From Mesotaenium endlicherianum (lineage: Eukaryota): 64,000 nt of DNA. Location: assembly GCA_009602735.1 (NCBI GenBank), contig WELA01003469.1, forward strand, positions 18,166-82,165, given 5' to 3'. The position numbers were made by a program, and so were the translations under genes. Every line of letters begins with the position of its first letter. Position 1 is the first letter of the stretch. Below are positions 10,752 to 64,000 of this stretch, in pieces. Below the pieces are notes generated by a model, which was given only the letters and a program-made list of their open reading frames with translations, made no database searches and was not told where the DNA came from.

Positions 10752-12830
10752 TGAAATAAATTGACTTACCAATAGGCTATTAACATTAAACAAAAGATTT
10801 TTATATCAGCATTAATCTTTATAGTAATTTTGCTCACCAATTTAACAGCAAAAGACAATACACTAGCGGTAGCTAATACTCATAAGTCAAATGCAAGTAA
10901 ACGAGCATCAATCATGTTGTAGTGATTTGAGTTATAATGTATTAGTTTGGTTTTATGTAAATGCTTTTGAAGATATTTGGAGTAGTATTGTGTGGATTCA
11001 AGTGTGAATAGATACTCTAGTGACTTGGTTTATGTCCTTTGAACCTTCCACGGCATTTTCAAAGTTAGAGGAAGGACCTAGAAGAACTCCATGTGGCAAA
11101 AGTCAAATGTGCCATTTTAGATCAAAAGGACATGTGTACATTATTCTAGAAAGAGGTGGCAAATTTTGGGATATGTTGGGTGCCAACACATCAACATGCA
11201 CCTTCCTAGAAATTACTTATGTAGCAAGTATATAGACAAGAGCTAGAACATAGAAAGGCATTCCAGAATCACCCTTGTACTTGCCTGAAATGAATCGACT
11301 TACCAATAGGCCATGTAGTGATTTGAGTTATAATATATTAGTTTGCATATACTTTCATGCTTTTGAATATATTTGGAGTAGTATTGTGTGGCGTCAAGTG
11401 TGAATAGATACTCTAGTGACTTGGTTCATGTCCTTTGAACCTTCTAAGGCATTTTCGAAGTTAGAGGAAGGACCTAGAAGAACTCCATGTGGCAAAAGTC
11501 AAATGTGCCATTTTTAGGTCAAAAGGACATGTGTACATTATTCTAGAAAGAGGTGGCAAGTTTTGGGATGTGTTGGGTGCCAACACATCAACATGCATTT
11601 TCCTAGAAATTACTTATGTAGCAAGTATATGAACAAGAGCTAGAACATAGAAAGACATTCGAGAATCACTCTTGTACTTGCCAAATTCAAGGCTAGGAGA
11701 CAGTGCATATCAATGGCTTCTCGCCTTGGATTCAGATCTCTCTCAGTAAGCAGTACAAGAGAGTTGGCCTCGTTTCCGAATGTCGAACTCGAGAGAAATC
11801 CTAGCATATGTACATGGAATGAGTATACTGTTCAACGGCCAATGCGATGGCACCGCCTACCCGGGCGTTAACCGCGTTGGTAGGACCTCGGTTAACCAAA
11901 TCCACCACCATCACCCATCATCCCGAATCGCCATCCATCCCAAGGATGTCATCTGGCCATTCATCTAGCACATCACACTTAGATTCATATCTAGGCACTT
12001 TGCTGCTACCGAGTACAAACGTCAGCTGGCTGTCAAAGAACGTGTCAGCAAGCTAATCTAAGTTGACTTCAGCTTGCTGCTCTCGGCTGAGTCATTAATC
12101 CGATTAGTTTATAAAGTCCAGCAGACTCAACATTAACTAAAGTTTAGCGGGCTGAACTTATTTAACTATTACATTTAAATGAATATACTGATTCATTACA
12201 ATCCCTCTAACTAAAATTGTTGTCGCCTCGACAACATTAAACTGTCAACTTATCTGGTCGGGGAACTAACAAAATTAACCCCCCATTGCTTGCCTCTTGC
12301 TTCAACACTATTGCCTAGCTGTGGGGATCACTAGTGACAGTGAACTGTCACCTCCACCCTCAGTCCACGTTTTGTGGGGTGCAAACAGAGAGACCTCCAG
12401 CAAGGCTTAACTGGAGGATGATTTTGATGTTTAGGGGGTTGTTCGTGGGACTTCAGGATCAGGAGAGTGAGATCTGGACCTAGATCTGGATAGCCCTCTA
12501 AGTCTGTTAGCTGGCCTTCTAAAAAACCCTGTTTGTTCTAAAATTGGGCCTCGAGGAGAACGTAGGACTGTAGCCTGCTCTTCAACCACCTGGGTGTTGA
12601 TGCCCACATAGAGGTGGTGGCCAGCATACCTCTCGCTACTCCGTGTGTCCCTCTTCTGGTACCCCTGTCCTCTGAAAATTTCGGCCTTTCTCTGTTGCCA
12701 AGAATAGTCAAATCAACTTCTTCCCCTGCTTGGGCAGGTGGACTGGGAGAACAAGTGCGGGGTCCTGTTGCCTCCATAATAGGGGTCACATTCTATACAC
12801 CTGATCTTGGCGCCCTAAGAGTCCCTGCTT
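10752..12830 (-). mobile_element. 3' end of a family-A element: ORF3 C-terminus, hairpin, PPT and an interrupted 3' LTR
   Basis: LTR 5' end (reverse complement of tgtaatgaat) at 12200, PPT-like atccctctaact next to it, hairpin tgttgtcgcctcgacaaca. The 12538-12789 peptide TGPRTCSPSPPAQAGEEVDLTILG matches ORF3. LTR 3' end at 10752. Confidence 0.85.
10918..11682 (+). repeat. Two ~370-bp direct repeats (10918-11285 and 11314-11682), probably the 5' part of a different LTR ('family B')
   Basis: Both start tgtagtgatttg and end cttgtacttgcc. They are separated by a 28-bp family-A LTR terminus. Confidence 0.8.
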
Positions 12831-17008: not shown

Positions 17009-17014
17009 ATGATT

Positions 17015-19398: not shown

Positions 19399-19399
19399 N

Positions 19400-30914: not shown

Positions 30915-30956
<42 letters not shown>

Positions 30957-42370: not shown

Positions 42371-43811
42371 ATATGCTGTACTGGAACCAGTAATCTTGTA
42401 TAGAAGAAATATTGGTGACAAGCGAACGGCTGTATATACAACCTACACACTAGAATTGCACGACAAATTCACTAGAGAGGACGAGACTAGATTGGGTAAA
42501 ACCGAAGCACTTATACTCCCGTCCGTCTCGACAAGGTAGGGCAGCGTACTTTGGAAAGAGGAATCTTGCCGCTGTAGTATTAGGTGTTTGAACAATGGAA
42601 GTGAGAGAACCACGCTGAAGCTGGATAACTTACCTGATTCTAAAGTCTCCTCTTACCTCGTAGAGAGTCGGTTAGCCACTTACATTGCAGTATTACTTGG
42701 AATGCAGTTTCGCTCATGCAACGTAAGCCCCAATGGAGTGGCTGCAGAAGTCAGCTTACCACGCACCCCAACACTTCACACCACTTCACACTACCGGCTT
42801 AAGACTGTCGACTGACACGCGGTCAAGCAGCTGTGAAAGCCTGGTGAGCCGGTCTGAAGCGGGAGGATTTTGCTGGTCAAGGGCTCAAGAAAAAAAACCG
42901 ACAATCTGTAGCAAACATCAACACACGCAGTTGCCCCGGATTCAAATAGCCGCGCCTTGCAAGCCATTTAATTTTTTGAAAAAAATTACAACAATTAGTA
43001 GTTGCATGTGATAGGCCGCTAATTTTAAACATCACGTTAGAGTTCGAGTCAGTTTGCGTGGAGTGTATCCTCCAGTATCCGCCAATTTTTTCTCATCGGA
43101 ATAAGCTGGGAATAAGCAATGCTGGCGGACTCTGGACTACACAGGAATTATCTGCTTATTGCCAAGTAAGCAATCCGGTGAATTTATGGCAGCCTGATTG
43201 AGCCTGATACACCGGGATGGACAGGATGGAGGTTACTTTTGGCAACTTTTGGACCTTTTATGACGGCGGAAAGGCCTCCCTCAGTCATTCACAGTCTAAA
43301 TGTCCTGGAGGCGCACTCAACTGCCGCCGCTTCAAAGATCAATCCACGTCAGGAGCTCTACACTTGCTTTTTGCAGAGTGGATATATATGGAGCCAGTAT
43401 GGTGCCCATACTTGAAGTTGCTTGAAGTTGCTTGAAGTGAACTGAACGAACTGAACTAGCTGGAACTAGCATGAATTCGCATGAGCCAAGTTGCATTTAA
43501 TGGGCCTTCTATCTGCCAGTAGGCACTTCGAAGTGATATGATTGCACGCGTGTCTCCCACAACTCTACTGATGCGCTGGTTCCGATACCTGTAATGTAAG
43601 GTGCGCTTGACACGATTGAGTGCAGAAGGTCAGAAAGTGCACTAGTCCACTTTTGATTGGTTAGATGAAGTCGCTCCAGTCGATTCTCTTGTTGCTGACA
43701 AGCAATGTCAGGAAATGTCAGGTTTGGTGCTTTCATTGGTTCCGTCTAGTCAGCTTTAGTAAAGTAAGCTGAAAGTAGGGACCACTCAAAACGCTCAGGA
43801 CTGCAAGCAGC

Positions 43812-43995: not shown

Positions 43996-46446
43996 CCATC
44001 GTGATTCGTGAGTCGTCATAACCGTGAGCCGCTTATTGCTCACGACGATGCCACAATCAAATACGTGTGCACACTTTCATACAGGGCTTGGGCTGGTCCA
44101 GGTAGGCTACTCTTGGTCAGGCTGACCGCTTCAGCTTCCAGCTTCAAAAAACAGAAGGGTGTGCACTTAACATTCTTGTCGCGACTACTATCCATTTGAA
44201 GGCGAGGCACGCGTACCGCAAGTTTCGGCCGCCCAGGTACGGTGGTCAACGCTGACCTAGGACCATTGATGACCATCAACAGGTCAGCCTTGGCACAAGA
44301 TACGTGCAGTTTGAAAGACAGATTGACCCCGACCCTCAGGGGTCAGCGGGGATAAACGGCCCAGTCAGCTGGACAGCTGACTAAACCAAGGCCGCAAGAG
44401 TGTACAGCTCAGCTGAGAAGCTGACACGGTCAAGTGACCATGTGAAGACGCCCAGTCAGCTGCAAAGCTGACTATGCTGCAGACATGCAGCCGTCACAAG
44501 AGCCCAAGCGCTGACTGGACGATGCTCTCAGTCGCCAGGCTCGAGCCAAGGCTGCCATGACTTAAGCAACCAGCCAAAGGGCGTAAAGCGCTAACGTCAC
44601 GCAGCCCTGCATGCTATTTGAAAGGCTGAAGACGGTCGAGCGATGTAATGAATTAGTATATTGGTAGATATAATATTCATTTTAATATAATATTTAAATA
44701 AGTTCAGCCTGCTGAAGTTAGTTAGTATTGAGCCTGCTGGACTTTATATCATTACCAGTTTAATGACTCAGCCGGGAGCAGCAGGTTGAAGTCTACTAGG
44801 TCAGCTTGCTGACACATTCTTTGCCAGCCAGCTGCCTTCCGTACTCGGTATCAGCGAACTGTCTAGATATGCATTTAAGTGTAGTGTGCTAGATGAATGG
44901 CCAGATGACATCCTTAGGATGGATGGCGATTCGGGATGATGGGAGATGGCGGTGGATTTGGTCAACTGAGGTCCTACCAACGTGGTTAACTCTCAGATAG
45001 GCGGTGCCATCGCACTGGCCGTTGAACAGTAAACTCATTCCATGTACATATGCTAGGTATTGCCCTCGAGTTCGGCATTCGAAAACGAGGCCAACTCTCT
45101 TGTACAGCTTACTGAGAGAGATCTGAATCCAAGGCGAGAAGCCATTGATATGCACAATCTCCTAGCCTTGCTTATGTGTGAGTTTACTGATTGCATTATT
45201 GATGCTAGTTTAATTCCATTTGACTTACGAGTATTGTCCACTGCTAGTGTGTTGTCTTTTGCAGTTTAACCAATGAACAGAAAATACCATGAAGATAACT
45301 TGCTAATAGAAAGATCTTCATTAATTGTTTATCGCCTTCTTAGTAAGTCAATTCATTTCAGTGATATCGGAGCTGTTACCACAGTCTTCTTTGTATAGTA
45401 AGGACAAGGTCTCAAACTAGCAACTCCCGAGACATGGAGAACCAGGATAACGAGAATGTCGAAAATCAGGCTAAAAGCCATGTAGCGGGAACCCGTACCT
45501 ATTCTGAAGCAGTGGCAGATACTGCAGCTAGAGAGGCTGCAGATGAGTTAGCTGCTATTGCCGCAGTCGCAGCACAGCAGGCTGAGGAGGAGAGAGCCAG
45601 ATTAAACGCTAAACGATTAGCAAAGGCTGCTGAAGATGCAGAAAAGAGGGAAGGACAACCAGCAGACGAGCACACTGTCGAAGAACTTATGGCATCAAGG
45701 GCCAATGTTCTGATCCCACCTCCTGCTGTACAACTCAATGTGCCCCTAGGTCAAATTCGTGACCGGCAGAATGCGGCAGGAATTGCTGCTGCAGGAGCGA
45801 GAGGGACTGTTGAGGACACTACTCAGCAAGTGGATGCCACTGCTACTGCTGCATTTGCTAAACTCCCACCTCAGAGTGTCGATTTGGGAGCATTGTTCGT
45901 GCAAAAGTAATCGCAAATGGCGAGCATGTATCAGTCCCAACAGGAGGACAAAAGAATCATAATGTCTCTGCTGCGAGACAGAGACCAACTGGGTTCTCAA
46001 ACCACTGGTGGTGGTGGCAGAGGGCCTAGTAAGCCCAAGCCGAAACCTCCCCAGGATTATGATCCTGAGGGGAACAAGAAGTATTACCTGATCAAGTTTC
46101 TGCCTGATGTTGAGCAGTGGCTGGAGAACTACCCAAAACTGCAGGATTACGAGAAGATCAAGCACACTGGTGCTCTACTGAAAGGCAGTGCAGCAGACTG
46201 GTGGTTGTATTGGAAAGGAGAGCGTAAGGCTCAACAACTAGGTGACCCTACTTGGGTAGAGTTTGCCGAGAAGCTGCATGAGAAGTTTGATGTGATCAAT
46301 CAGCAAGAGAAAGCTATCTATGCGATGATCTCCTTGACACTGATGCACACCACTTCAGTTACTGAGTTTGCTCAAAGGTTTCAGGAGATAATGATAAAGC
46401 AGACAGACTTGCCAGAGCGGTATAGGATAGCATACTTCAGGTATGG

Positions 46447-47166
46447 TGTAATGAATCAGTATATTAGTGGATAAAATATTCATTTAAATATAATAGTTAA
46501 TTTAGTTCAGCCTGCTGAACTTTAGTTAATAGTCAGTCTGCTGGACTTTACATAATTATCAGTTTAATGACTCAGCCGGAAGCAGCAGGCTGAAGTCCAT
46601 ATAAGTCAGCTTGCTGACCCATTCTTTGACAGCCAGCTGACTTCCGTACTCGGTAGCAGCGAACTGCCTTGACTTACACCTAAGTACGATATGCTAGATG
46701 AATGGCCAGATGACATCCCTATGATGGATGGCTATTCGGGATGATGGGAGATGGCGGTGGATTTGGTTAACCGAGGTCCTACCAACGTGGTTAACTCCCG
46801 GGTAGGCGGTGCCATCGCACTGACCGTTGAACAGTAAACTCATTCCATGTACATATGCTAGGCATTGCTCTCGAGTTCGGCATTCAGAAACGAGGCCAAC
46901 TCTCTTGTACAGCTTACTGAGAGAGATCTGAATCCAAGGCGAGAAGCCATTGATACGCACTGTCTTCTAACCTTGCTTATGTATGAGTTTACTAATTTGC
47001 ATTATTGATGCTAGTTTACTCGCATTTGACTTACGAGTGTTATTCACTGCTAGTGTATTGTCCTTTGCCGTTTAACCAGTTAACGGAAATTACCATAAAG
47101 ATTACTTGCTGATATAAAGATCTTTATTAATTGTTAATCGCTTATTTGGTAAGTCGATTCATTTCA
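46447..47166 (+). mobile_element. Family-A solo LTR (720 bp) inserted in gag
   Basis: TGTAATG...CATTTCA flanked by TSD TATGG (46442-46446 and 47167-47171). The gag frame FRYG|LK resumes after it. Confidence 0.95.
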
Positions 47167-49150
47167 TATGGCCTGAAATACGAAGTCTCTGGTCATTTTG
47201 CTGAAAAGAAGTATGAGAAATTGGCTGACTTGATCCAGGATGCTGATGCTTGGGATCAGCAGCAGTTCAATCACAAGCGCCAGAGTAATGCTTTGGTGTC
47301 TAAGGTTGTCAAAAAGCCCCACAATTCCTACAATGCAATTGAAGGAGACCAGGCTGAGGATGATCAGGGTGATGAATATGCAGTCTAGAGGGAGAGGTGT
47401 TTTCTCTCGAGGCGACTATGGAAGAGGTGGTGGTAGGACTAAGCCGAGACCAACCTCAGCAAAATCTGTTTGCTTCCATTGCCAGCAATTGATCCACTTC
47501 AGAGAGCAGTGTCCAGTCAAGCACCTCCCAAAGGTCGAGAGAAATGACCAGCCTTTAAAAGACAGCAACAGTCAGTAATCTAGTCTACTGACTGTGAGGA
47601 TGCTAGAGATAGTGAGTCGTCACTAGCTGCCCTCGTAACAGGTATTATGGGTCCTGATGAACTGGATTTACTATGCATGCTTGACAACCAGATAAAGGAG
47701 ACCATCAGCAATATAGATCTCCAGAGAGTGCACACTCTGGATGATCTTGTTCCACCTGATGTCCAACATTTCTCTGCTAAGTCAGTAGAACAATGCGAAA
47801 GTCAGGAAAAGTCAGTCCCCCCTAAACTGCGAGACAGTTCTACAGCCATGTAGTATGCCAACATGGGCTACCCTCTAATATAATCTCAGACAGAGACTCA
47901 AAACTTACCTCTAAGTTATGGAGAGCTTTAATGGGGTTAATGGGAGTCAAACAGCTGCTCAGCACAGCAAACCACCCTCAGACTGATGAGCAGATTGAAA
48001 GAACTAACCGATTTCTGCAAGAGGTACTGAGAGCCTATCTTAACCAAAACAAGATAATTGGGATGACCTCTTACCTCAAATCCCGTTTGCGGTCAACCGT
48101 GCGGTGCACGCGTCAACGGGCAAGACTCCTTTTGAACTGAGCCTGGGTAGAGTCCCTAAGTCTCCTTTAGATGTACTAGGGGAGTCTTTATCTCACCCTG
48201 AAGAGATCTGGTCTCCCTCCAATTAACCCAAGAGTTTGCTGACACCCTGTCAGAAGTCCAACAGGAACCTGCACAAAGCCCAAGAAAACCAACAAAAATA
48301 CGCTACTCAGCACCGTTGAGAATTGACATTTTCTAAGGGCGATTTGGTCAAACTGCATTTTCAGCACCTGTACCAGCCTGGTGTGGTCAAGAAAAAGCTT
48401 GGTCCTGTCTGGGTCGGTCCATATTCTGTGGTGCGCCGTGTCGTTCAGATTGTTTACAAACTGAACATGTCAGCAGATTACAAGGTCACCCAGTCTTTAA
48501 TGTTTCCTTCCTGGAACCATATATTAAAGGTTACACATTGTTCACAGGTCGGTTACCTGTCCAACCGGGACCGGTCCCCGCTGTCCGGGATGGTAACCCT
48601 GAGGAATATGAGGTCGAGGACATTTTAGACGGTCGCTCTGTCCGTCTATCGTCTAAATATGTCATGAAGTACCTGGTCGGATGGAAGGGTTACGATGCCT
48701 CTGGGGACACTTGGGAATTTAAAGACCAGCTGACCAATGCCAAAGGGGCGTTGAAACGGTTCCACCTTCGGGCGGCTGGCACCCCTCCCTAATTGTCATT
48801 TCAGTGGACATGGACAGGTGACAGGAGGTCCGGTCTCCGTATAAGTCGCAGGGGAATGTGACAGTTAGTGACAGATAGTGATAGTCGTGACAAGCAGCCA
48901 ACCTTTATAATTAAGTTGGAGAGAGTGTGTTCGGTATCGGGATCAGCCAAGCGAATTTTATGACCATTCTACACACTCAACCTGCGCTCACACTCACTTT
49001 TTCTCTCTAACTCAATTCTCTCTTATACTCACTCAGACAAGATACTACACACTAGAGACTCTCCCTATCACGTTCTTCTTCACCACGGGCACTCAGTTGC
49101 GGCAAAGTGTCATGACTTCACTGACTGCATTGTGTTTATAATTGAGCAGG

Positions 49151-50424
49151 ATGACTCAAAAGTCGAAATTTAAGAGGAAGAGAAGAGCGGAAGAGGCACA
49201 TGCAGAATACTTGCAATTCCGTGGCGACATCAAATCATCCTCCATTGCCGCTTGGGAATCACAACGACTCCAACAACAGGGGGAGGCACAGAAGAAAGAG
49301 GAGGAGGAGGAACAAGCCAGATTGAGGCAGGAAGAACTAGACAGAAAAGCTACAGAGGAGGCCAAGAAGGAAGAGGAGGAGAGGCAAGTTGAGGAGAAGC
49401 GAAAGCAGCAGGCTGAAGATGAACAGAGGAGAATGAGCAGCTACCGCTACACAGTGCTGGGCAAGGGCTTTGATCTACTGGCGAAGGCCTTCAAGTATGC
49501 CCAGAGAAGTCGCAGTGAGTCACAGAAGGACATCCTGCAGAGGGAAGGGGAGACATCCCTATAGAGGTCAGCACAGGGCTCCTCCTCTACCACGATTATG
49601 CCAGGATGGTATGATATACAGTCACAGAGTCGAAGGCCCTGGCCCAAGTGAATGAGGCAGGAGCCGTATCGATTCCAGGTATTTGGGGGGAAAATAGGGT
49701 GATCCCCACGGACGCGGCCAGCTTTAAACACTCTACATCCCATAACAGGTTCAAGGCCATGTATAATGAGGTGGAGAGGAGGAGCTGGGAGTTCTTGGCC
49801 AAAGAAATCAGTCAGCTGGACTTCGCAGGGCATTGGTACCCGTGTACTCTGAAAAGGACAAACCCTGCCTTTATCCAGAAGCCCACCGATTGGCGAAGGA
49901 TGACCATCAATATGAGGGGCCAGCAGAATGACAGGGCAGGGGAGGAAGATTTCCTTACAGACTTACAGGAGAACATAGTGTTGCCTCCTCACATTGCAGC
50001 TTGGGACCCAAGATTGGATGGGGTAAGGGACTGTATGAGTCAAGAAATGCAGCAGGATAGGAGCAGGGCCCGCGAGGCATTCTCTAAAGGGAAGCACTCT
50101 TATGCCAAATGGGCAAGCAAGCAGTGAGAGAAAGACTTGTATAAGGTCAGGACTCAAGAGCCTCCACCAGCACCCAAAAGGGGAAGGTCGGTGGATAACT
50201 CTTTTTCTCGGGCAGAGCTGGAGCACCTGACAGAGGAGATCCCAGCAGTCTCAGAGAAGCCGGGGGAAGAAGAGGAGGAGTCAGAGGAAGAAGAGGAGGT
50301 TGACGAGAAAGAGGACACTAGCCCCGCTGTGACCCAGACACCTGCCACATCCCCTGTAATAGAGAAGACAAAGTTGGCCAGGGCAGACACAGCTCTGCAC
50401 CAGCTCGCTGAAGAGGAAGATATC
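49151..50424 (+). pseudogene. Diverged ORF3 homologue of the older element, interrupted at 50424 and continuing at 59377
   Basis: Shares YRYTV, YNEVERRSWE.LA, HW.PC.L, PTDWR.MT, LPPHIA.WDPRL.G and FSKGKH with the intact ORF3. Confidence 0.85.
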
Positions 50425-51222
50425 TGTAATGAATCAGTATATTAGTAGATATAATATTCAGTTAAATATAATAGTTAATTTAGTTCAGCCTGCTGGACTT
50501 TAGTTAGTAGTCAGTTTGCTGAACTTTAGTTAGTAATCAGTCTGCTGGACTTTAGTTAGTAGTCAATCTGCTGAACTTTAGTTAGTAGTCAGTCTGCTGA
50601 ACTTTAGTTAATTATCAGTTTAATGACTCGGCCAAAAGCAGCAGGCTGAAGTCAACTTAAGTCAGCTTGCTGACACATTCTTTGACAGCCAGCTGACTTC
50701 CGTGCTCGGTAGCAGCGAACTGCCTTGATATGCATCTAAGTACCACCTGCTAGTTGAATGGCCAGATGACATCCCCATGATGGATGGCTATTCGGGATGA
50801 TGGGAGATGGCGGTGGATTTGGTTAACCGAGGTCCTACCAACGTGGTTAACTCCCGGGTAGGCGGTGCCATCGCACTGACCGTTGAACAGTAAACTCATT
50901 CCATGTACATATGCTAGGCATTGCTCTCGAGTTCGGCATTCGGAAACGAGGCCAACTCTCTTGTACAGCTTACTGAGAGAACTCTGAATCCAAGGCGAGA
51001 AGCCATTGATACGCACTGTCTTCTAACCTTGCTTATGTATGAGTTTACTGATTTGCATCATTGATGCTAGTTTACTCGCATTTGACTTACGAGTATTATT
51101 CCCTGCTAGTGTATTGTCCTTTGCCGTTTAACTAGTTAACGGAAATACCATAAAGATTACTTGCTGATATAAAGATCTTTATTAATTGTTAATCGCCTAT
51201 TTGGTAAGTCGATTCATTTCAG

Positions 51223-51234
51223 TGGTATCGGAGC
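51223..51234 (+). promoter_or_regulatory. Primer-binding site, tRNA-iMet type
   Basis: TGGTATCGGAGC lies 1 nt after the LTR and differs at one base from the plant consensus TGGTATCAGAGC. Confidence 0.9.
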
Positions 51235-51255
51235 AGTTATCACAGTCTTCTTTGT

Positions 51256-52734
51256 ATGGTAAGGACAAGGTCTCAAACTAGCAACTCCCGAGACATGGAG
51301 AACCAGGATAACGAGAATGTCGAAAACCAGGCGGAAAGCCATGTAGCGGGAAACCGTACCTATTCGGAAGCAGTAGCGGATACTGCAGCTAGGGAGGCTG
51401 CAGATGAGGCAGCTGCTATTGCCTCAGTCGCAGCTCAGCAAGCTGAGGAGGAGATAGCCAGACTAGAAGCTGAACAAGTAGCAAAGGCCGCTGAAGATAT
51501 ACAAAGGAGGGAAGGACAGCCAGCTGACGAGCGCACTGTTGAAGAACTTATGGCATCAAGGGCCAATGTTCTGAACCCACCTCCTGCCGTACAACTCAAT
51601 GTACCCCTAGGTCAAATACGTGACCGGCTGAATGCGGCAGGAATTGCTGCTGCAGGAGCAAGAGGGATTGTTGAGGACACTACTCAGCGAGTAGATGCCA
51701 ATGCTGCTGCTGCATTTGCTAATCTACCACCCCAAAATGTAGACTTGGGAGCATTGTTCGTTCAGATGCAGTCGCAAATGGCGACCATGTATCAGTCCCA
51801 GCAGGAGGACAAAAGAATCATAATGTCCCTACTCCGGGACAGAGACCAACTGGGGTCTCACACCACTAGTGGTGGTGGCCGAGGGCCTAGTAAGCCCAAG
51901 CCGAAACCTCCCCAGGACTATGATCCTGAGGGAAACAGAAAATATTACCTGATCAAGTTTCTCGCGGATGTTGAGCAGTGGCTGGAGAACTACCCAGAAC
52001 TGCAAGATTACGAGAAGGTCAGGCACACCGGTGCGCTACTGAAAGGCAGTGCCGCAGACTGGTGGCTTTACTGGAAGGAAGAGCGTAAGGCTCGGCAACT
52101 CGGTGACCCTACGTGGGTAGAGTTTGTCGAGAAGTTGCATGAGAAGTTTGATGTCATCAACCAGCAGGAGAAAGCTATCTATGCGATGATCTCCCTGACA
52201 CTGAAGCAGACCACTTCAGTTGCTGAGTTTGCTCAAAAGTTCCAAGAGAACATGATGAAGCAGCCTGATTTGCCAGAACGGTATAGGATAGCATACTTCA
52301 GGTATGGCTTGAAATCCGAGGTCTCTGGTCATTTTGCTGAGAAAAAGTATGAGAAACTGGCTGACTTGATCCAGGATGCTGACGCCTGGGATCAGCAGCA
52401 GTTCAATCACAAGCGCCAGAGTAACGCTTTGGTGTCTAAGATTGTCAAAAAGCCCCACGGTTCCTACAATGCAGTTGAAGGAGACCAGGCTGAGGATAAT
52501 CAGGGTGATGAATATGAGTATGAGTACAATGCTATTCAGTCTAGAGGTAGAGGTGGTCCCTCTCGAGGTGGCTATGGAAGGGGTGGTGGTAGGACTAAGC
52601 CGAGACCAGCCTCAGCAAAATCTACTTGCTACCATTGTCAGCAGAAAGGCCACTACAGAGAACAGTGTCCGGTCAAGCACCTGCCTAAGGTCGAGAGAAA
52701 AGACCAGCCTTTAAAAGACAGCAACAGTCAGTAA
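51256..52734 (+). CDS. gag: Gag, 492 aa
   Basis: Capsid-like LKGSAADWW...[16 protein letters not shown] tract, CCHC knuckle [14 protein letters not shown]. Confidence 0.95.
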
Positions 52735-55700
52735 TCCAGTCTACTGACTGTGAGGATGCTAGAGATAGTGAGTCGTCACTAGCTGCCCTCGTAGCAGGTA
52801 TTATGGGTCCTGCTGAACTGGATTCACTATGCATGCCTGACAACCAGATAAAGGAGACCATCAGCAATATAGACGTCCAGAGAGTGCACACTCTGGATGC
52901 TCTTGTTCCACCTGATGTCCAACATTTCTTTGCTACGTCAGGAGAACAATGCGAAAGTCAGGAAAAGACAGTCCCCCCTATCCTACTGCATTGCATGATT
53001 GCAGGTAGGAAGGTGAGGGCATTTGTTGACGGAGGGGCGTCACATACTTTTATCCACAAGGACTTAGTTAAGCGGCTAAGGCTGCCTACTGTCACCCAAG
53101 GGAATAGAAAAATATTCCTTGGAGATGCCTCAAGTATCCCGGGAGGAGTTATAACCAAGCCTATTGAGGTCCAGTTAGGTTCTGGCATTGCAGTTCTAAC
53201 TGAAACGCTTACATTTGAGGTACTCAACACTGGCTTTTATGATCTCGTGCTAGGCAGGTCCTGGCTTAATAGACATCAAGCTGAAGTGTGTTGGAGCAGA
53301 GGTACAGTTAAAGTGAGAGGAGCCAGTGATGGGCAGACTGACTTGGCACCCACCAGTGCTCTTCCTCTTGTCCTGTGTGGATGGCAAATGAAGGAAAAGA
53401 AGAGGCTTCCAGAAGGATGCAAGTTGCTGAATGCAATGGAGTTCGTCAAAAGCTGGAACCAGAAGGAAGACAGAATGTTCTGTCTGCTGCTAAGAGAGGT
53501 ACCTCCTCAACCTGAAGAAGTGGTTGAGAAAAAGGTACACCCTCCGGAACACCCTACTGCTGCAAACATTGTTGCTCAGTACACGGATGTGTTTAATATG
53601 CCTCCAGGACTACCCCCTAAGCGGGAAGTAGATCATAGGATTGATTTATTACCTGGTAGCCAGCCACCCTGGCAACGCACGTATGGCTTGTCTTATTTGG
53701 AGAGTGAGGAGTTGAAAACACAGATTGCAGAGCTGGAGGAAAATGGTTACATTTCTCCCAGTAAATCACCGTACGGCGCACCTATCCTATTTGTTAAGAA
53801 AAAGGATGGCAGTATGCGGATGTGTGTGGATTACAGAGCCCTGAACAGAATTACAGTAAAGAACAAGTATGCTTTACCCAGAATCGAGGACTTGCTTGAT
53901 ACCCTGTCTGGCGCTAAGGTGTTCAGTAAGATAGATCTCAAGAGTGGTTATCATCAAATCAGAATTGCTGAGGGGGATGAACACAAGACTGCTTTCCGCA
54001 CACGTTATGGACACTATGAGTTCAACGTGATGCCATTTGGACTGACTAATGCTCCTGCTACCTTTATGGGTGCTATGAATGACATTTTCAGACCTTATTT
54101 GGATAAGTTTGTGCAAGTTTTCCTGGATGATATTTTAATTTTCTCTAAAGATGAAGCTCAGCACACTGAACACTTAAAGAAAGTGCTGGACACTCTGCGG
54201 AAAAATCACTTGTATGCTAAAATGAGCAAGTGTGATTTCTTTAAGGAAAGTATTGAATTCTTAGGCCACGTTGTCAGTAAAGAGGGCATCAGTGTGGATC
54301 CTAAGAAAGTCCAGACCATAAGGGACTGGCCAGTACCACAGTCTGTCTCTGAAGTTAGATCCTTCCTCGGGTTGGCTAACTACTATAGGAGATTTATTGA
54401 GAATTATTCCACAAAGGCCAGTAAACTGACTGACCTTACTAAGAAAGACATCGGGTATGTGTGGGGGGAAGAGCAGCAGGCTGCCTTCCAGACCCTTAAA
54501 GATGCCCTTTGTTCTGCCCCAGTGCTAGCCGTGTATGACCCCAGCAAACCGGTGCAGGTGGTTACTGATGCCTCTGATTTTGCCATGGGTGCTATTTTGT
54601 TGCAGCCTGCTGACAAAACCACAAAGGATGGTAAGGTACGGCAGGAGTGGCATCCTGTGTTGTATGAGTCTATGAAATTTAATCCAGCGGAGATTAATTA
54701 CTCAGTGCATGATAAAGAGCTGCTAGCTATCATTCATGTACTCAAACAGTGGAGAGCATACTTACATGGTAAAGCTTTTAAGGTGATTACAGATCATCTA
54801 GCTCTGACCCACTTTCAGAAGAAGTCCAAGCTGTCGAGGAGGGAGAACCGCTGGAGCCAGATGCTGGAGCAGTTCCAAGTCCAGATCGACTACAAACCAG
54901 GGAAGTTGAATCCTGCTGATGCACTCTCTAGAAGACCTGACTTGCAAGAAAGGAACTTTAGTCAGCATACTGTAGATAAAGTCCTGTGTGCACTCACTTC
55001 ACTAAAGGTGAAAAAGTCCTTCCTTGAACAACTTAGGAAAGCCTACCTTTCTGACCCAACATTTGAGCCCAGCCCCACTACTGGTATGTGTCGTGCTACC
55101 GCACTCGGGTATAAGCTCAAGGGAGGGGTCTGGGTGACTGAAACCACTTCAGGCAGGCTGAAGCTGGTCATTCCTAATAATTTGGAAATAAGGTCTCTCT
55201 TACTGAGTCAAGCTCATGACAGTCTCCTGGGTGGACATTTGGGGCAGGCCAAAACTGTTGGCAAACTGGCAAAACATTATCATTGGGAGGGGTTACCCCG
55301 GGAGGTCTTGAAATATGTCAAGTCCTGTGACCAGTGTCAGAGAAATAAGTCTCGGCACACACCACCCGGAGGTCTCTTGCAACCGCTACCCATCCCAGCG
55401 GGACGCTGGGAAACTATATCCATGGACTGGGTGGTCTCACTACCAAGAACTGCCAACGGGCATGATTCAATACTGGTAGTCGTGGATAAACTGACAAAAA
55501 TGGTCATTTTTATCCCCACAACTGTCAAAGTGACTGCACTCGAAACAGCGAGACAGTTTTACAACCATGTAGTATGCCAACATGGGCTCCCTTCTAATAT
55601 CATCTCAGACAGAGACTCAAAATTCACCTCTAAGTTCTGGAGAGCTTTAATGGGGTTAATGGGAGTCAAACAGCTGCTCAGCACAGCAAACCACCCTCAG

Positions 55701-56519
55701 ACTGATGGGCAGACTGAAAGAACTAACCGAGTTCTGCAGGAGGTGCTGAGAGCATATATTAACCAAAAACAAGATAATTGGGATGACCTGTTGCCTCAAA
55801 TTCAGTTTGCGGTCAACAGTGCGGTGCACGCGTCAACGGGCAAAACTCCTTTTGAACTCAGCCTGGGTAGAGTCCCTAAGTCTCCTCTAGATGTGCTAGG
55901 GGAATCTTTAACTCACCCTGAAGGGATTGACAACCCGGTCTCCCTCCAGTTAACTCAGGAGTTTGCTGACACCCTGTCAGAAGTCCAACGAAACTTGCAC
56001 ACGGCCCAAGAAAACCAACAAAAATACGCTAATCAACACCGTCGGGAACTGACATTTTCCAAGGGGGATTTAGTCAAACTGCATTCTCAGCACCTGTACC
56101 TCCCTGGTGTGGTCAAGAAAAAGCTTGGCCCTGTCTGGGTCGGTCCATATTCGGTGGTCCGTCGTGTCGGTCAGAATGCTTACAAACTGAACATGTCAGC
56201 TGAATACAAGGGGCACCCGGTCTTTAATGTCTCCTTCCTGGAACCGTACATCAAAGGTGATACACTGTTCACAGGTCGGTTCCCTGTCCAACCGGGACCG
56301 GTCCCCGCTGTCCGGGACGGCGACCCTGAGGAATATGAGGTCGATGAGATTTTAGACGCTCGCTCGGTCCGTCGATCGTCTAAATATGTCATGAAATACC
56401 TCATTCGATGGAAGGGTTACGATGCCTCTGGGGACACTTGGGAGTTTAAGGACCACTTGACCAATGCCAAAGGGGCGTTGACACGGTTCCACCTTCGGGC
56501 CGCTGGAGTCCCTCCATAA
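52689..56519 (+). CDS. pol: Pol: protease, RT, RNase H, integrase, chromodomain
   Basis: VDGGASH (PR); MPFGLTNAP and FLDD (RT); TDAS and DKELLA (RH); H-H-C-C, DDE and GPY (INT); YEVDEIL...YLIRWKGY...DTWE (chromodomain with aromatic-cage residues). First ATG at 52803. Confidence 0.97.
52710..52823 (+). promoter_or_regulatory. Predicted -1 ribosomal frameshift signal
   Basis: T_TTA_AAA in the gag frame, 7-nt spacer, perfect 10-bp stem at 52724-52751. pol is in the -1 frame and open from 52689. Confidence 0.8.
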
Positions 56520-56786
56520 CTGTCATTTCAGTTGACACGGGAAGGTGACAGGCGGTCCTGTCTCCATTTAAGTTGGAGGGGAAAATATATGACAGTTAGT
56601 GAGCGAGAGCGATAAAAACACACTCATACGTTTATGTGTAGCGCATCGCAACTACGTCAACTTTTAGCAATCATCCTGTAAGGTAAACAGCAGCGAAGCC
56701 ACTATACTAAATACTAACATACTTCCTGCAATCCCTATGACAAAGGTCCATATCCTACTAACTTGTGCCCTGGTTACATGTGCAGG

Positions 56787-58463
56787 ATGGCGCCCACCAC
56801 ACAAAAGGAGGACAGAAAGCGCAAGGCAGAAGAAGCCAGGAGGACAATGGAGCAATACCAGAAGGAGCTGGCGGCGACGTCCCTCACCAGGAGAGAACAA
56901 GAAAGGGTCCGCAAACAACAAGAGGCGGCAGAAGAGGCACAGAGGAAGAAGGATCAGGAAGCGGAAAACCTCAGGAAGGCTGAGGAGGAGAGACAGAAGA
57001 AACAGCAAGAAGAAGCGGCAGCGGCAGAAGAGGAGAAAAGAAAAAAGATTGAAGCGGACAGACAGAAGAGCTTGGCCACTTACAGGTATACTGTGGTGGG
57101 TGGCCAAAACTTCGATAACCTGAAGGAAGCATTGCTGGCAGCCCAGGAGATCAACAGGCTGGAACAGACAACACTGCTACAGAAGGAAGGAGCTACAGCA
57201 CTGGACAGGTACATCGAGACACACACCGGCGTGGTCCTTTACGAAGATTATGCTAAGATGGTGGGCTATACAGCAGAGCAGGCCCGGTATCTCGCAGATG
57301 ATTCAGAGGACAAGCCGGTCCCCATACCGGGAATAGTGGGAGATCAGAGACTCATCCGGATGGTGAGCATGCGGCCCGATAGCTTTAAGGATACGGTATT
57401 CTACCTCACACTCCTGCCAGCTTACAATGAAGTTGAGAGAAGGAGCTGGGAGTACTTGGCCAGGGAAGCAGGACAGCAGATGTTCTCTCCCCACTGGTTC
57501 CCGTGTAAACTGAGGAAGGCTGAGCACGGACCCCAGTACTACCAGCAGCCAACAGACTGGAGGTGGATGACCGTCACAAATAAGAAGCAGGAGTGTGACC
57601 GAGCCCAACCGGATGACTTCCACTATGGCCTAGACGGCTATCTCATCCTACCACCTCACATTGCCCCTTGGGACCCCAGGCTGAATGGATGCCTGAGCAA
57701 TATGAATGCAGAGACCAAGGAACATAGGAGGAGGGGAAGAGACTACTTCTCTAAGGGAAAGCATGCCTTTGTCAAATGGGCAAAGAATGCAGGCCGGATA
57801 GATATCAGTAGGCTGAAGGCCAAGCAACCTCCAGCGCGCCCTAAGAAAGGGAGGTCGGTAGACTACTCCATGTCTACTAGGGAGCAGGACGACTTAGTGG
57901 ACGAGACCCCTACTCTCTCCGAGGAGGAGGATGAGGAGGCTGAGGAAGAAGAACAGGGCAGAGGAGAAGCATCAGCAGCAGGTACTCAGGATACCCAGGG
58001 ACAGGTAGGGGCGCTTCTTAAAGAACCACGATCAGGTGTTTGGAATGTGATCCCCGTTATGGCGACTACTGGACCCCGCGCTCGCTCCCACAGCCCACCT
58101 GCCCAAGCAGGGGAAGAAGCTGATCTGACTGTATTGGGCAGCAGACACAGGCAGAAATCCCCAGAGGACAGGGGTGCCAGAAGAGGGACACGCGGGTGGG
58201 CCAGAGGTATGCCAGCCTCCCCCTCCGCTCAGGGGCATGTACCTCTAGCCAATGTATTTCAGCATCCTACTGGAATGCCTGTCTATGTGGGCATCAACAC
58301 CCAAGTGGTTGAAGAGCAGGCTACCATCCTTCGTTCTCCTCGAGGTCCAACTTTAGAGCAAACCGGGTTCTTTAGAAGGCCAGCTGACAGACCTAGAGGG
58401 CTGTCCAGATCTAGGTCCAGATCTCCGTCCCCTGATCCTGAAGCCCCAGGAACCACCCCTTAA
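56787..58463 (+). CDS. ORF3: extra sense-strand retrotransposon protein of unknown function, 558 aa
   Basis: Intact ORF between pol and the PPT. Charged coiled-coil N-terminus, conserved central domain, acidic and RS-rich tail. Homologues at 49151, 63327 and about 12440-12830. Confidence 0.88.
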   Translation: MAPTTQKEDRKRKAEEARRTMEQYQKELAATSLTRREQERVRKQQEAAEEAQRKKDQEAENLRKAEEERQKKQQEEAAAAEEEKRKKIEADRQKSLATYRYTVVGGQNFDNLKEALLAAQEINRLEQTTLLQKEGATALDRYIETHTGVVLYEDYAKMVGYTAEQARYLADDSEDKPVPIPGIVGDQRLIRMVSMRPDSFKDTVFYLTLLPAYNEVERRSWEYLAREAGQQMFSPHWFPCKLRKAEHGPQYYQQPTDWRWMTVTNKKQECDRAQPDDFHYGLDGYLILPPHIAPWDPRLNGCLSNMNAETKEHRRRGRDYFSKGKHAFVKWAKNAGRIDISRLKAKQPPARPKKGRSVDYSMSTREQDDLVDETPTLSEEEDEEAEEEEQGRGEASAAGTQDTQGQVGALLKEPRSGVWNVIPVMATTGPRARSHSPPAQAGEEADLTVLGSRHRQKSPEDRGARRGTRGWARGMPASPSAQGHVPLANVFQHPTGMPVYVGINTQVVEEQATILRSPRGPTLEQTGFFRRPADRPRGLSRSRSRSPSPDPEAPGTTP

Positions 58464-58540
58464 GGTGACAGGCTGAAAAGATAGTCAGTAAGGGAGGCTG
58501 GTCAGGGTCAGTTTCTTTATTTAAAGCTTTTGCAGTTTAA

Positions 58541-58576
58541 TGTTGTCGAGGCGACAACAACTTAAGTTGGAGGGAT
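58541..58576 (+). promoter_or_regulatory. Hairpin and polypurine tract before the 3' LTR
   Basis: TGTTGTCG-AGG-CGACAACA stem-loop followed by ttaagttggagggat|TG. Confidence 0.8.
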
Positions 58577-60114
58577 TGTAATGAATCAGTATATTAGTAG
58601 ATATAATATTCAGTTAAATATAATAGTTAATTTAGTTCAGCCTGCTGGACTTTAGTTAGTAGTCAGTTTGCTGAACTTTAGTTATTAGCCAGTCTGCTGG
58701 ACTTTACCTAATTAGTCAGACTGCTGGACTTTACATAATTAGTCAGTCTGCTGGACTTTACATAATTATCAGTTTAATGACTCAGCCGGAAGCAGCAGGC
58801 TGAAGTCCATATAAGTCAGCTTGCTGACCCATTCTTTGACAGCCAGCTGACTTCCGTACTCGGTAGCAGCGAACTGCCTTGATATGCATCTAAGTGCGAT
58901 ATGCTAGATGAATGGCCAGATGACATCCCTATGATGGATGGCTATTCGGGATGATGGGAGATGGCGGTGGATTTGGTTAACCGAGGTCCTACCAACGTGG
59001 TTAACTCCCGGGTAGGCGGTGCCATCGCACTGACCGTTGAACAGTAAACTCATTCCATGTACATATGCTAGGCATTGCTCTCGAGTTCGGCATTCGGAAA
59101 CGAGGCCAACTCTCTTGTACAGCTTACTGAGAGAGATCTGAATCCAAGGCGAGAAGCCATTGATACGCACTGTCTTCTAACCTTGCTTATGTATGAGTTT
59201 ACTGATTTGCATTATTGATGCTAGTTTACTCTCATTTGACTGACGAGTAGTATTCCCTGCTAGTGTATTGTCCTTTGCCGTTTAAACGAGTTAACGGAAA
59301 TACCATAAAGATTACTTGCTGATATAAAGATCTTTATTAATTGTTAATCGCCTATTTGGTAAGTCGATTCATTTCAATATCACTTGGCTGGGGATTGCCA
59401 GGGGACAAAGCTCAGTTGCAGGCGCAGAGACCCAGTCAGTTAGGGTAGACAGAAGGGCTGCCAGAGAAATAGCCAGAGGCCTGCCAGCATCTCCCTTGCA
59501 GAGAGGACATTTGCCATTGGCTCATGTCATGCAATATCCTTTTGGAATGCCGGTATATGTACCTGTCAGTTTGAGGGATGCCCAGGAGAAGGCTGCTTTT
59601 CTTCAGTTTCAAACTGTGTAGGAGAAAACAGCCCAGTTACTACGTTCTCCCCTTGGTTCCCCCTACTCGGAGCCCCCAGGCTTCAGGAGACCCTAAGACA
59701 GAAGCAGGAGGTGTGGCTCTCAGTCTCGCTCCCCTAATTGTAGAGCCCCAGGAACATCTCCTTCATAAGAACAGTAGGCTGAGAGGAAGGAGACCAATAC
59801 TCAGTTGGGAAAAAACATGTACCCAATGTTAGTGTTGTCGAGGCGAAAACTTGTTAAGTTGGAGGGATTGTAATGAATCAATATATTGGTAGATATAATA
59901 TTCATTTAAATATAATAGTTAAATAAGTTCAAGCTGCTGAACTTAGTTAGTATTGAGCCTGCTGGACTTTGTATAATTACCAGTTTAATGACTCAGCCGG
60001 GAGCAGCAGGCTAAAGTAAACTAGGTCAGCTTGCTGACACATTCTTTGCCAGCCAGCAGCTGCCTTTCGAACTCGGTAGCAGCGAACTGCCTAGATATGC
60101 ATTCAAGTGTGGTG

Positions 60115-63100
60115 TGCTCACTACACGGATGTATTTAATATGCCTCCAGGACTACTCCCTAAGAGGGAAGTAGATCATAGGATTGATTTATTACCTGGGA
60201 GTCAACCACCCTGGCAACGCACATATGGCTTGTCTTATGTGGAGAGCGAGGAGTTGGAAACACAGATTGCAGAGCTTGAGGAAAATGGTTATATTTCTCC
60301 CAGTAAATCACCTTACGGCGCACCCATCCTATTTGTTAAGGAAAAGGATGGCAGTATGCAAATGTGTGTGGATTACAGAGCTCTGAACAGAATTACAGTA
60401 AAAAACAAGTATGCCTTACCCAGAATCGAGGACTTGCTTGATACCCTGTCTGGTGCTTAGGTGTTCAGTAAGATAGATCTCAAGAGTGGCCATCATCACA
60501 TCAGAATTGCTGAGGGGGATGAACACAAGACTGCCTTCCGCACACGTTATGGACACTATGAGTTCAACGTGATGCCATTTGGACTGACTAATGCTCCGCG
60601 ACCTTCATGGGTGCTATGAATGACATTTTCAGACCTTATTGGATAAGTTTGTGCAAGTTTTCCCGGATGATATTTTAATTTTCTCTAAAGATGAAGCTCA
60701 GCACGCTGAACACTTGAACACAGTCATGGCCACTCTGAGAAGAAATCACTTATATGCTAAAATGAGCAAGTGTGATTTCTTCAAAGAAAGTATTGAATTC
60801 TTAGGCCACGTCGCCAGTAAAGCAGGCATCAGTGTGGATCCTAAGAAAGTCCAGACCATAAGGGACTGGCCAGTACCACAGTCTGTCTCTGAAGTTAGAT
60901 CCTTCCTCGGGTTGGCTAACTACTATAGGAGATTTATTGAGAATTATTCCACAAAGGCCAGTAAACTGACTGACCTTACGAAGAAAGACATAGGGTATGT
61001 GTGGGGGGAAGAGCAGCAGGCTGCCTTCCAGACCCTTAAAGATGCTCTTTGTTCTGCCCCGATGCTAGCCGCGTATGACCCCAGCAAACCGGTGCAGAAG
61101 GTCACTGATGCCTCTGACTTTGCCATGGGTGCTATTTTGTGGCATCCTGCTGACAAAACCACAAAGGATGGTAAGGTATGGCAGGAGTGGCACCCTGTGT
61201 TGTATGAGTCTATGAAATTTAATCCAGCGGAGATTAATTACTCAGTGCATGATAAAGAGCTGCTAGCTATCATTCATGTGCTCAAACAGTGGAGAGCATA
61301 CTTACATGGTAAAGCTTTTAAGGTGATTGTAGATCATCTAGCTCTGATTCACTTTCAGAAGAACTCCAAGCTGTCGAGGAGGGAGAACCGCTCGAGCCAG
61401 ATTCTGGAGCAGGTTCAATTCCAGATCGACTACAAACCAGGGAAGTTAAATCCTGCTGATGCACTCTCTAGAAGACCTGACTTGCAAGAACGGAACTTTG
61501 GTCAGCATGCTGTAGATAAAGTCCTATGTGCACTCACTTCACTAAAGGTGAAAAAGTCATTCTTTGAACAACTTAGAAAAGCCTACCTTTCTGACCCAAC
61601 ATTTGAGGCCAGCCCCACTACTGGTATTGAGTCAAGCACATGACAGTTTACTGGGTGGGCCTTTGGGGCAAGCCAAAACTGTTGGCAAACTGGCAAAACA
61701 CTATCATTGGGAGCAATTACCCCGGGAGGTCTTGAAATACGTTGTCCTGTGACCAGTGTCAAAAGAATAAGTCTAGGCACACACCACCGGGAGGCCTCTT
61801 ACAACCGCTGCCCATCCCAGCTAGCCGCTGGGATACAATATCCTGGGACTGGGTGGTCACACTGCCACGAACTGCCAATGGGCATGATTCGATATTGGTA
61901 GTCGTGGGTAAACTGACAAAAATGGTCATTTTCATCCCCACAATTGTCAAAGTAACTGCACTCGAAACAGCGAGACGGTTCTACAACCATGTAGTATGCC
62001 AACATGGGCTACCCTCTAATATAATCTTAGACAGGGACTCGAAATTTACCTCTAAGTTCTGGAGGGCTTTAATGGGGTTAATGGAAGTCAAGCAGCTGCT
62101 CAGCACAGCAAACCACCCTCAGACTGATGGGCAGACTAACCGAGTCCTGCAAGAAGTACTGAAATCTTATATTAACCAAAAACAAGATAATTGGGATGAC
62201 GTGTTACCCCAAATCCAATTTGCGGTCAACAGTGCGGTGCACGCGTCAACGGGCAAGACTCCTTTTGAACTAAGCCTGGGTAGGATCCCTAAGTCTCCTT
62301 TGGATGTCTTAGGGGAGTCTTTAACTCACCCTCAAGGGACTGACAATCCGGTCTCCCTCCAGTTAACTCAGGAGTTTGCTGACACCCTGTCAGAAGTCCA
62401 ACAAAACTTGCACAAAGCCCAAGAAAACCAACTAAAGTATGCTAATCAGCACCGTCGAGAACAAACCTTTTCTAAGGGCAATTTGGTCAAACTGCATTCT
62501 CAGCACCTGTACCTCCCTGGCGTGGTCAAGAAAAAGCTTGGTCCTGTTTGGGTCATTCCATATTCGGTGGTGCGCCGTGTCGGTCAGATCACTTACAAAC
62601 TGAACATGTCAACAGAATACAAGGGTCACCCGGTCTTTAATGTTTCCTTCCTTGAACCCTACATCAAAGGGGACACACTGTTCACAGGTCGGTTACCTGT
62701 CCAACCGAAACCGATCCTCGCTGTCCGGGACGGTGACCCTGAGGAATTTGAGGTTGAGGAGATTTTAGACGCGCGCTCGGTCCGTCGATCGTCTAAATAT
62801 GTCATGAAGTACCTCATTCGATGGAAGGGTTAGGATGCCTCTGGGGACATTTGGGAATTTAAGGACCATTTGACCAATGCCAAAGGGGCGTTGAAACGGT
62901 TCCATCTTCGGGCGACTGGAGCCCCTCCATAACTGTCAATTCAGTTGACACGGGAAGGTTCTAGGCGGACCTGTCTCCATTTAAGTTGGAGGGGAAAATA
63001 TATGACAGTTAGTGTGCGAGAGCGAGAAAGGAACAGTTATGTAAACCCTAAGTGTCAGCATAGTGACAGATGGGACAGCCTGGCCAACATAACGCACCTT

Positions 63101-63644
63101 GGGCAGAAGGAAAATGGGCCTCACACAGCAATACATCACTTAACGCACCTTCAAACACATTCATATGTTTATGTATAGTGCACCGCAACTACGTCAACTC
63201 TTAGCAATCACTTGCTAAGGTAAACAGAGGCAAATCCACCATACTAATACGAACATACTTCCTGCCTGCAATTCCTATGACAAAGGTCGATATCCTACTA
63301 ACTTGTGCCCTGGTTACATGTGCAGAATGGCTTTCACCACACACAAGGAGGACAGAAAGCGCAAGGCAGAAGAAGCCAGGAGGACAATGGAGCAATACCT
63401 GAAGGAGCTGGCGGCGACGTCCCTCACCAAGAGAGAACAAGAAAGGGTCCGCAGACAACAAGAGGCGGCAGAAGAAGCACAGAGAAAGAAGGATCGAGAA
63501 GCGGAAAATCTCAGGAAAGCTGAGGAGGAGAGACAGAAGAAACAACAAGAAGAAGCGGCAGCGGCAGAGGAGGAGAGAAGGAAAAAGGCTGTAGCGGACA
63601 GGCAGAAGAGCTTGGCCACTTACGGGTATACTGTGGTGGGTGGC
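60115..63644 (+). mobile_element. Third, degenerate family-A internal region (RT to chromodomain, and the 5' part of ORF3 from 63327), fused to a truncated LTR
   Basis: Close match to 53575-57104 with stops, frameshifts and a deletion at about 61627. The LTR-pol junction has TGCT microhomology. Confidence 0.9.
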
Positions 63645-64000
63645 TGTAATGAATCAGTATATTAGTAGATATAATATTCATTTAGATGTAATAGTAAATT
63701 AAGTTCAACCTGCTGAACTTTAGTTAAATTATCAGTTTGCTGGACTTTATATTTAATAACAGTTTAATGACTCAGACGGATGCAGCAGGCTGAAGTCAAC
63801 TTAAGTCAGCTTGCTGACACATTCTTTGACAGCGAGCTGACTTCCGTACTCGGTAGCAGCGAACTGCCTCATATGCATTTAAGTGTGGTAGGCTAGATGA
63901 ATGGCCAGATGACATCCCTATGATGGATGGCCATTCGGGATGATGGGAGATGGCGGTGGATTTGGTTAATCGAGGTCCTACCAACGTGGTTAACTCCCGG
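63645..64000 (+). mobile_element. Family-A LTR inserted in ORF3, running off the window
   Basis: TGTAATGAATCAG starts at 63645 and interrupts YTVVGG. Confidence 0.92.

Follow-up and report, generated by a model that had tools for sequence, protein, structure and literature searches.

Two divergent ORF3 cassettes on one gag/pol backbone in a Ty3/gypsy chromovirus of Mesotaenium endlicherianum

Why does the third open reading frame (ORF3) of a retrotransposon family in Mesotaenium endlicherianum differ so much more between copies than gag and pol? The question is raised by a stretch of 64,000 nucleotides from contig WELA01003469.1 (assembly GCA_009602735.1, positions 18,166 to 82,165), herein called the window, which holds a nest of one Ty3/gypsy family. 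A young element (50425–59376), with gag, pol, and ORF3 all open, sits within the ORF3 of an older, broken element (49151–50424 and 59377–59770). A preliminary description of the locus took ORF3 to evolve much faster than gag/pol and proposed a host-conflict, anti-silencing protein. As judged from sequence comparison, the divergence instead reflects an old split of two homologous cassettes on one recent backbone. The open frame, the purifying selection on it, the existence of two ORF3 types, and the sharp ends of the divergent block are observed and, in our assessment, practically certain.

Two ORF3 types on one backbone

Between the young copy (type Y) and the old copy (type O), protein identity is 42–53% in ORF3 and 81–87% in gag and integrase; the latter, described earlier as nearly identical, are 85–90% identical in sequence. 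Fast evolution in place predicts a synonymous divergence of ORF3 like that of gag/pol. The proportion of differing synonymous sites is 0.69–0.73 in ORF3 versus 0.21–0.31 in gag and integrase, and 53 of 87 fourfold-degenerate sites differ in ORF3 versus 55 of 307 in gag/pol (p = 5e-14; one overlapping integrase alignment is left out of the sum). Hence, ORF3 is part of a mosaic rather than a fast-evolving gene. The identity of the two elements falls from about 90% to unalignable at ~56615, about 95 bp past the pol stop codon, and returns at ~58537, about 40 bp before the polypurine tract (PPT). The divergent block takes in the noncoding leader and the 3' untranslated region besides ORF3, and its sharp ends argue for two ancient ORF3 cassettes on one gag/pol backbone.

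A third element in the window (T) allows a three-way comparison. In the integrase end (975 columns), the distances are 0.096 for Y–O, 0.091 for Y–T, and 0.110 for O–T, whereas in the 5' part of ORF3 (297 columns), Y–T is 0.064 and type O lies 0.44 from either. The three-way distances, the fourfold sites, and the sharp block ends thus bear out a swap of the ORF3 cassette between subfamilies, which had been named beside rapid evolution. The window contains four copies or fragments of ORF3, and both types are also found among the contigs of run X1, on separate contigs alongside shared pol contigs. Type O is therefore evidently no single odd copy. Contig depths in this run, which are no copy numbers, are 23–37 for pol, 13–20 for type Y, 8.7 for type O, and 23.1 and 8.2 for the two contigs of the integrase end.

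The ratio of nonsynonymous to synonymous substitution rates (dN/dS) between young and old is 0.16–0.26 in three ORF3 segments and 0.22 in gag. Outliers are 97 codons at the gag-pol junction, where changes are very few (1.38), and a frameshift-affected integrase alignment (0.61). The purifying selection proposed for ORF3 is supported by these values, which are not near 1. An arms race, in which ORF3 would evolve much faster than gag/pol in place, could draw on the lower protein identity and on dN/dS values of 0.16–0.32 in the longer ORF3 segments, somewhat above the 0.11–0.15 of the cleanest pol segments. However, synonymous sites and noncoding flanks diverge along with the protein, and the third copy is nearer to the young element in ORF3 (6%) than in integrase (9%). 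The arms race is thereby largely refuted and very improbable. The step from rapid evolution to host conflict falls as well, since among copies of the same type, ORF3 divergence does not exceed that of pol. What weighs against a reading by exchange alone is that just two ORF3 types were compared. With dS close to saturation and a decayed old copy, a modestly higher rate of ORF3 than of reverse transcriptase (RT) and integrase, or a few positively selected sites, is possible. In accessory proteins of transposable elements, dN/dS tends to be higher than in core enzymes (PMC13547354).

Very probably, the exchange came about when reverse transcription switched templates between co-packaged RNAs, the integrase end on one side and the PPT/long terminal repeat (LTR) on the other providing homologous flanks. 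LTR elements are well known to recombine while they are reverse-transcribed (PMC6894440).

The ORF3 protein

The type-Y protein consists of a charged, helix-like N terminus (residues 8–95), a conserved core (~100–345), and a basic motif, PKKGRS (352–357), followed by an acidic tract, a low-complexity region, a short conserved block (472–500), and a tail of RS and SP dipeptides. The core is 47% identical between the types over 252 codons (tblastn E 3e-80) and the N-terminal part 42%. All blocks quoted in the preliminary description (YNEVERRSWE[YF]LA, HW[FY]PC.L, PTDWR.MT, LPPHIA.WDPRL.G, and FSKGKH) are found in the alignment, which, as had been noted, resumes past the insertion, after 59377, with 53% identity over 90 C-terminal codons (E 9e-19).

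Other features look different on closer inspection. The core, thought to be rich in W, P, H, and C, contains 12.2% of these residues (residues 100–345) versus 12.0% in pol, and they are conserved at 16 of 28 positions versus 62 of 142 for the others (p = 0.22). Only Trp stands out, with five of six kept; Cys is kept at one of three positions, and this single conserved Cys forms no conserved Cys pattern. GW/WG repeats occur at most once per type. The N terminus had been read as a coiled coil, but its 88 residues are 82% E/K/R/Q/A and 7% hydrophobic, and a single α-helix fits better (25 i,i+4 charge pairs versus 13.7 in shuffles). The SRSRSRSPSP tail is confined to the young type; what type O has in its place is a reduced S/R-SP remnant.

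A K-[KR]-x-[KR] motif directly follows the core at matching alignment positions in the two types (PKKGRS and PKRGRS), both N termini are basic, and both C termini contain SP/TP sites. These features suggest a nuclear phosphoprotein, and the predicted nuclear location is likely. A leucine-rich pattern resembling an export signal (residues 278–288), aligned in both types, was not counted, as the pattern is loose and matches elsewhere too. No transmembrane or signal-like segment was found in ORF3, the maximum Kyte–Doolittle value of a 19-mer being 0.73 (Y) and 0.92 (O). Hence, ORF3 is not env-like, although it occupies the env position and its predicted splicing resembles that of env. The env-like reading was weighed together with that of a captured host gene carried as a passenger. 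No homologue was found among host or viral proteins, and purifying selection that spans a saturated split is not what one would expect of a passenger; both readings are extremely improbable.

Searches for relatives were negative throughout. None of 4140 candidates was a homologue of the core at E 0.001, none of 430 matched a two-sequence ORF3 profile at E 1, and the core had no match at E 0.001 among 1.84 billion representatives. In metagenome contigs, 0 of 185 pattern matches were confirmed, and in viral contigs 0 of 50. The best match of the core to sequences in the PDB had an E value of 0.32, and Pfam gave sub-threshold low-complexity matches alone, with no VANC or other accessory domain of transposable elements. 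In the ESM Atlas, the best score was 0.84, which is of lead level only. The AlphaFold2 models of the core are unusable (mean predicted local distance difference test score 33.8 from a single sequence and 39.5 from two), so that the globular fold assumed earlier is not demonstrated, and a Foldseek search with the two-sequence model, which returned nothing at E 0.001, is uninformative given the poor model. No match to a described retrotransposon extra-ORF domain or captured host gene was found in the sequence databases, Pfam, and PDB sequences. By these comparisons, ORF3 is a conserved extra gene without detected relatives. A literature search not covering Additional file 4 of PMC6317226 (eORF groups) or Steinbauerova 2011 found no published account of this ORF3, and within the literature and database searches made, the protein family appears to be undescribed.

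Expression and possible roles

As an explanation we tentatively put forward that ORF3 is an accessory chromovirus gene in the form of two ancient, exchanged cassettes, expressed from a spliced mRNA and acting as a nuclear regulator of how the element's own RNA is spliced or exported. In both types, a branch-point match lies 28–29 nt upstream and GCAG-G directly precedes the ATG, whereas in the further-upstream 55 nt, Y and O agree at 13 positions only. A branch point combined with GCAG-R-ATG occurs on the plus strand only at the three ORF3 starts, with one match on the minus strand. The branch point and AG kept by both types suggest a spliced ORF3 mRNA, and this conserved acceptor signal lends indirect support to the RNA-processing role that the preliminary description had offered as an alternative. 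A predicted donor lies in U5, and GTAAGTCRATT occurs in seven LTR ends versus 0.03 expected. If this donor (after 51203) is joined to the acceptor that precedes the ATG (56786), the primer binding site (PBS), gag, and pol would be removed; the predicted junction is somewhat likely. Another donor-like sequence, at the ATG of gag, was set aside, as it would join ORF3 out of frame. With a strong donor–acceptor pair in its full-length RNA, the element would need a route of export for unspliced RNA. By analogy with CERV and Rev, ORF3 would be the factor that provides this route, a function that is possible but on the unlikely side.

Several points weigh against this explanation. The predicted donor overlaps the integrase attachment end, a stretch under constraint of its own, so its conservation has another possible cause. 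No splice junction of the young element was found in RNA runs X10, X13, and X16 (6–24% of each run read); among 207, 812, and 477 reads on the element, respectively, the sole joint was a 289-nt skip with non-splice ends. No joint to the type-O acceptor (49150) was seen in X13, X16, and X11, and reads of X13 cover both of its sides at similar depth, as unspliced RNA would. Since read coverage of ORF3 is very thin (depth 0 to 2.6 over the first 1 kb of type Y), the junction test is weak, and its result slightly unfavourable; no RNA datasets were listed as matching the ORF3 stretch. Shuffled sequences fold as well as the two leaders (z 0.19 and 0.32), in which no response-element-like structure was seen, the RS tail is kept just in part in type O, and no sequence or structural link of ORF3 to CERV or Rev was found, the models being too poor for fold comparison.

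Most reads of the stranded runs that lie over the integrase end and U5 carry their first mate on plus. In the majority of libraries of this kind, such an orientation denotes antisense RNA, and the reads probably stem from read-through of old copies. In all RNA runs examined, many reads cross from the element into one and the same foreign sequence, either at 51221 (the LTR end) or at 51324 (a short way into gag), which suggests that one or two truncated copies at other places in the host genome are transcribed.

The absence of the junction from the reads would agree with a gene that has its own promoter, either internal or from a relic LTR. ORF3 would then be a second unit behind an ancestral PPT, with another helper role (particle, retrosome, or nuclear-import scaffold). 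The PPT word TAAGTTGGAGRG occurs five times in the window versus 0.04 expected, three times internally and twice preceding LTRs. It stands just past the pol stop in all three elements (56569, 62982, and twice in the old element, 48842 and 48912), at the 5' edge of the cassette. Candidate readings of the internal copy are a relic of the ancestral 3' end and a second plus-strand primer. A long charged helix with disordered parts would suit a scaffold, and the extra gene of Grande is reported to have its own promoter (PMC7264820). However, such a gene would not need the branch point and AG that both types keep at conserved spacing before the ATG, and we consider it unlikely.

A swapped cassette may also encode an anti-silencing factor that acts on DNA as VANC does or suppresses RNA silencing, with the two types countering host silencing differently. 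ORF3 is predicted to be nuclear, it is an orphan, and both types are under purifying selection; the 26-nt tandem array in the LTR is a candidate binding site, and balancing selection could account for two old alleles on one backbone. Anti-silencing roles have been proposed for other plant aORFs (PMC11728184). Against this, amino-acid change shows no excess, and the ORF3 type is uncoupled from the LTR: among the three elements, LTR starts differ by 10–15% and ORF3 by 6% or 44%, so that fast co-evolution with an LTR target motif is not seen in this comparison. The Pfam match, GW/WG repeats, or Cys pattern that might mark such a factor are lacking, as described above, and element RNA is scarce in the RNA runs examined. 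With the argument from rapid evolution gone, nothing found points specifically to anti-silencing, which is quite unlikely.

The nest and related systems

The features of the elements are collected in Table 1. The young element has LTRs with a target-site duplication (TSD), gag, a pol with the order protease (PR)–RT–RNase H (RH)–integrase (INT), and a chromodomain at the integrase C terminus (PF00385, E 2e-8) with Tyr/Trp/Tyr at the three cage positions, as in a Ty3/gypsy chromovirus. We take its primer site to be of the tRNA-Met type. In a tree of 118 RT–RH segments without labelled REXdb references, the nearest relatives are 57–61% identical, and the tree places the element in no named clade. 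The two LTRs show 36 differences in 797 columns, which are clustered, and the 5' LTR may be recombinant, in which case LTR divergence would overstate the age of the insertion. The 3' LTR is nearer to the solo LTR at 46447–47166 (19 of 719) than to its own 5' LTR (36 of 797), and the internal region differs by less than 1% from contigs of run X1.

Table 1. Features of the elements in the window
Feature	Position	Strand	Basis	Remark
Young element
5' LTR	50425..51221	+		TG...CA ends; 26-nt tandem array in 5' part
3' LTR	58577..59376	+	sequence comparison
TSD ATATC	50420..50424 and 59377..59381	+	sequence	5 bp
Predicted splice donor GTAAGT	51204..51209	+	motif	18 nt before LTR end
PBS TGGTATCGGAGC	51223..51234	+	sequence
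gag	51256..52734	+	Pfam Ty3_capsid, Retrotrans_gag, zf-CCHC	capsid and zinc knuckle
Slippery heptamer TTTAAAA	52710..52716	+	sequence
pol	52689..56519	+	Pfam, sequence	-1 frame; PR, RT, RH, INT, SH3, chromodomain
Internal copy of PPT word	56569..56582	+	word match	5' edge of swapped block
Type-Y cassette	56615..58536	+	identity profile	leader, ORF3, 3' untranslated region; divergent from old element
Predicted branch point TACTAAC and acceptor AG	56756..56786	+	motif	AG at 56784–85, one base before ORF3 ATG
ORF3 type Y	56787..58463	+	open frame between pol and 3' LTR	558 residues
PPT	58563..58576	+	sequence
Old element
5' LTR, gag, pol, integrase end	44644..48883	+	alignment	large internal deletion in pol
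Putative branch point CTGAC and acceptor AG	49121..49150	+	motif	before ORF3 ATG
ORF3 type O, 5' part, broken	49151..50424	+		frameshift near 49561–49567; stops near 49612 and 50125; truncated by insertion
ORF3 type O, 3' part	59377..59770	+		in-frame stops
Other copies
Third element, 5' part of type-Y ORF3	63327..63644	+		after own pol (60115–62932); cut by LTR from 63645
Fourth fragment, 3' end of type-Y ORF3	12434..12819	-	alignment	precedes LTR

In the old element, gag and the integrase end span 45347–48883, with gag split by the solo LTR. At least three nested self-insertions of the family lie in 44644–64000 (at 46447, 50425, and 63645), matching the expectation for chromodomain-guided targeting to its own heterochromatin. 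Elsewhere in the window, a recent tandem duplication of ~5.2 kb (13761–19345 and 19276–24516) contains a GC-rich segment and minus-strand pieces from a less closely related subfamily of this retrotransposon. Two GC-rich long open frames (28569–36170; 547 and 1913 codons stop to stop) have poly-Q/poly-E runs and no Pfam match. A neighbouring host gene on the minus strand (40736–42442) encodes a single-exon DUF7950 protein with a weak PAS-like match, the clusters matched being streptophyte. A degenerate tandem array with a period of ~190 nt lies at 6922–8442.

Chlamyvir, Galadriel, and Tcn1 of REXdb, which are chromoviruses of non-seed plants, have the PR-RT-RH-INT-chromodomain order, the Tyr/Trp/Tyr cage, and the 5-bp TSD in common with the young element, which in addition carries the 3' ORF3; its tRNA-type PBS argues against Tcn1. 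PMC6317226 reports chromodomains with the aromatic cage only for non-seed plants; this and the streptophyte clusters of DUF7950 make a non-seed streptophyte the likely host. Described chromovirus aORFs, from seed plants, are mostly located 5' (PMC11728184).

Plant LTR retrotransposons are known to carry a class of extra ORFs in sense orientation, placed between pol and the 3' LTR (PMC7264820, PMC6317226). With its position, sense strand, and 558 codons (at least 250 define the class), ORF3 belongs to the type termed aORF-3S or eORF-3'F. As in Bagy2, Athila, and SIRE, it has this position and orientation, several copies, and no database match. It differs in that its carrier is a chromovirus, it has no transmembrane segment, and its two versions are homologous (47%) with mappable boundaries of exchange. 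The extra ORF of Bagy2 is reported to be spliced (PMC7264820), and the eORF-3'F proteins of SIRE fall into 19 unrelated groups within one lineage (PMC6317226).

VANC of the VANDAL DNA transposons resembles ORF3 as a predicted nuclear accessory protein encoded by a transposable element with tandem repeats in its noncoding DNA. There is no sequence match, the ORF3 type does not co-vary with the LTR, and change is not accelerated. The features of VANC in this comparison are in part those given in PMC13547354.

The one worked-out precedent among Ty3/gypsy elements is CERV of Cer1 in Caenorhabditis elegans, also mentioned in PMC12786077. CERV is a nuclear, S/T-P phosphorylated accessory protein of 517 residues that is needed for export of unspliced RNA; its own mRNA is spliced, and the acceptor precedes the ATG (PMC10309623). 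ORF3 is an accessory protein of similar size, for which splicing, nuclear location, and function are predicted only. CERV differs in sharing exons with gag and in its Cys loop and G-protein-like domain, none of which is seen in ORF3, and shows no sequence similarity; the likeness is analogy, not homology. The comparison with HIV-1 Rev is likewise by analogy.

Thousands of extra ORFs have been catalogued in plant LTR retrotransposons, and PMC6317226 states as open whether fast evolution or repeated acquisition accounts for them. The locus is a clean case of a third route to aORF diversity: homologous ancient alleles swapped as a cassette with mappable ends. It also provides an orphan core of ~250 residues. 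With a single predicted splice junction, it bears on whether a regulatory gene other than env is expressed in a plant chromovirus. A chromovirus with a plan like that of complex retroviruses—a spliced non-env gene of undescribed fold that licenses the export of unspliced RNA, in two interchangeable ancient alleles—is an unlikely reading. If true, ORF3 would be a plant counterpart of Rev and CERV in a chromovirus of a non-seed plant, with alleles recombining onto one gag/pol backbone.

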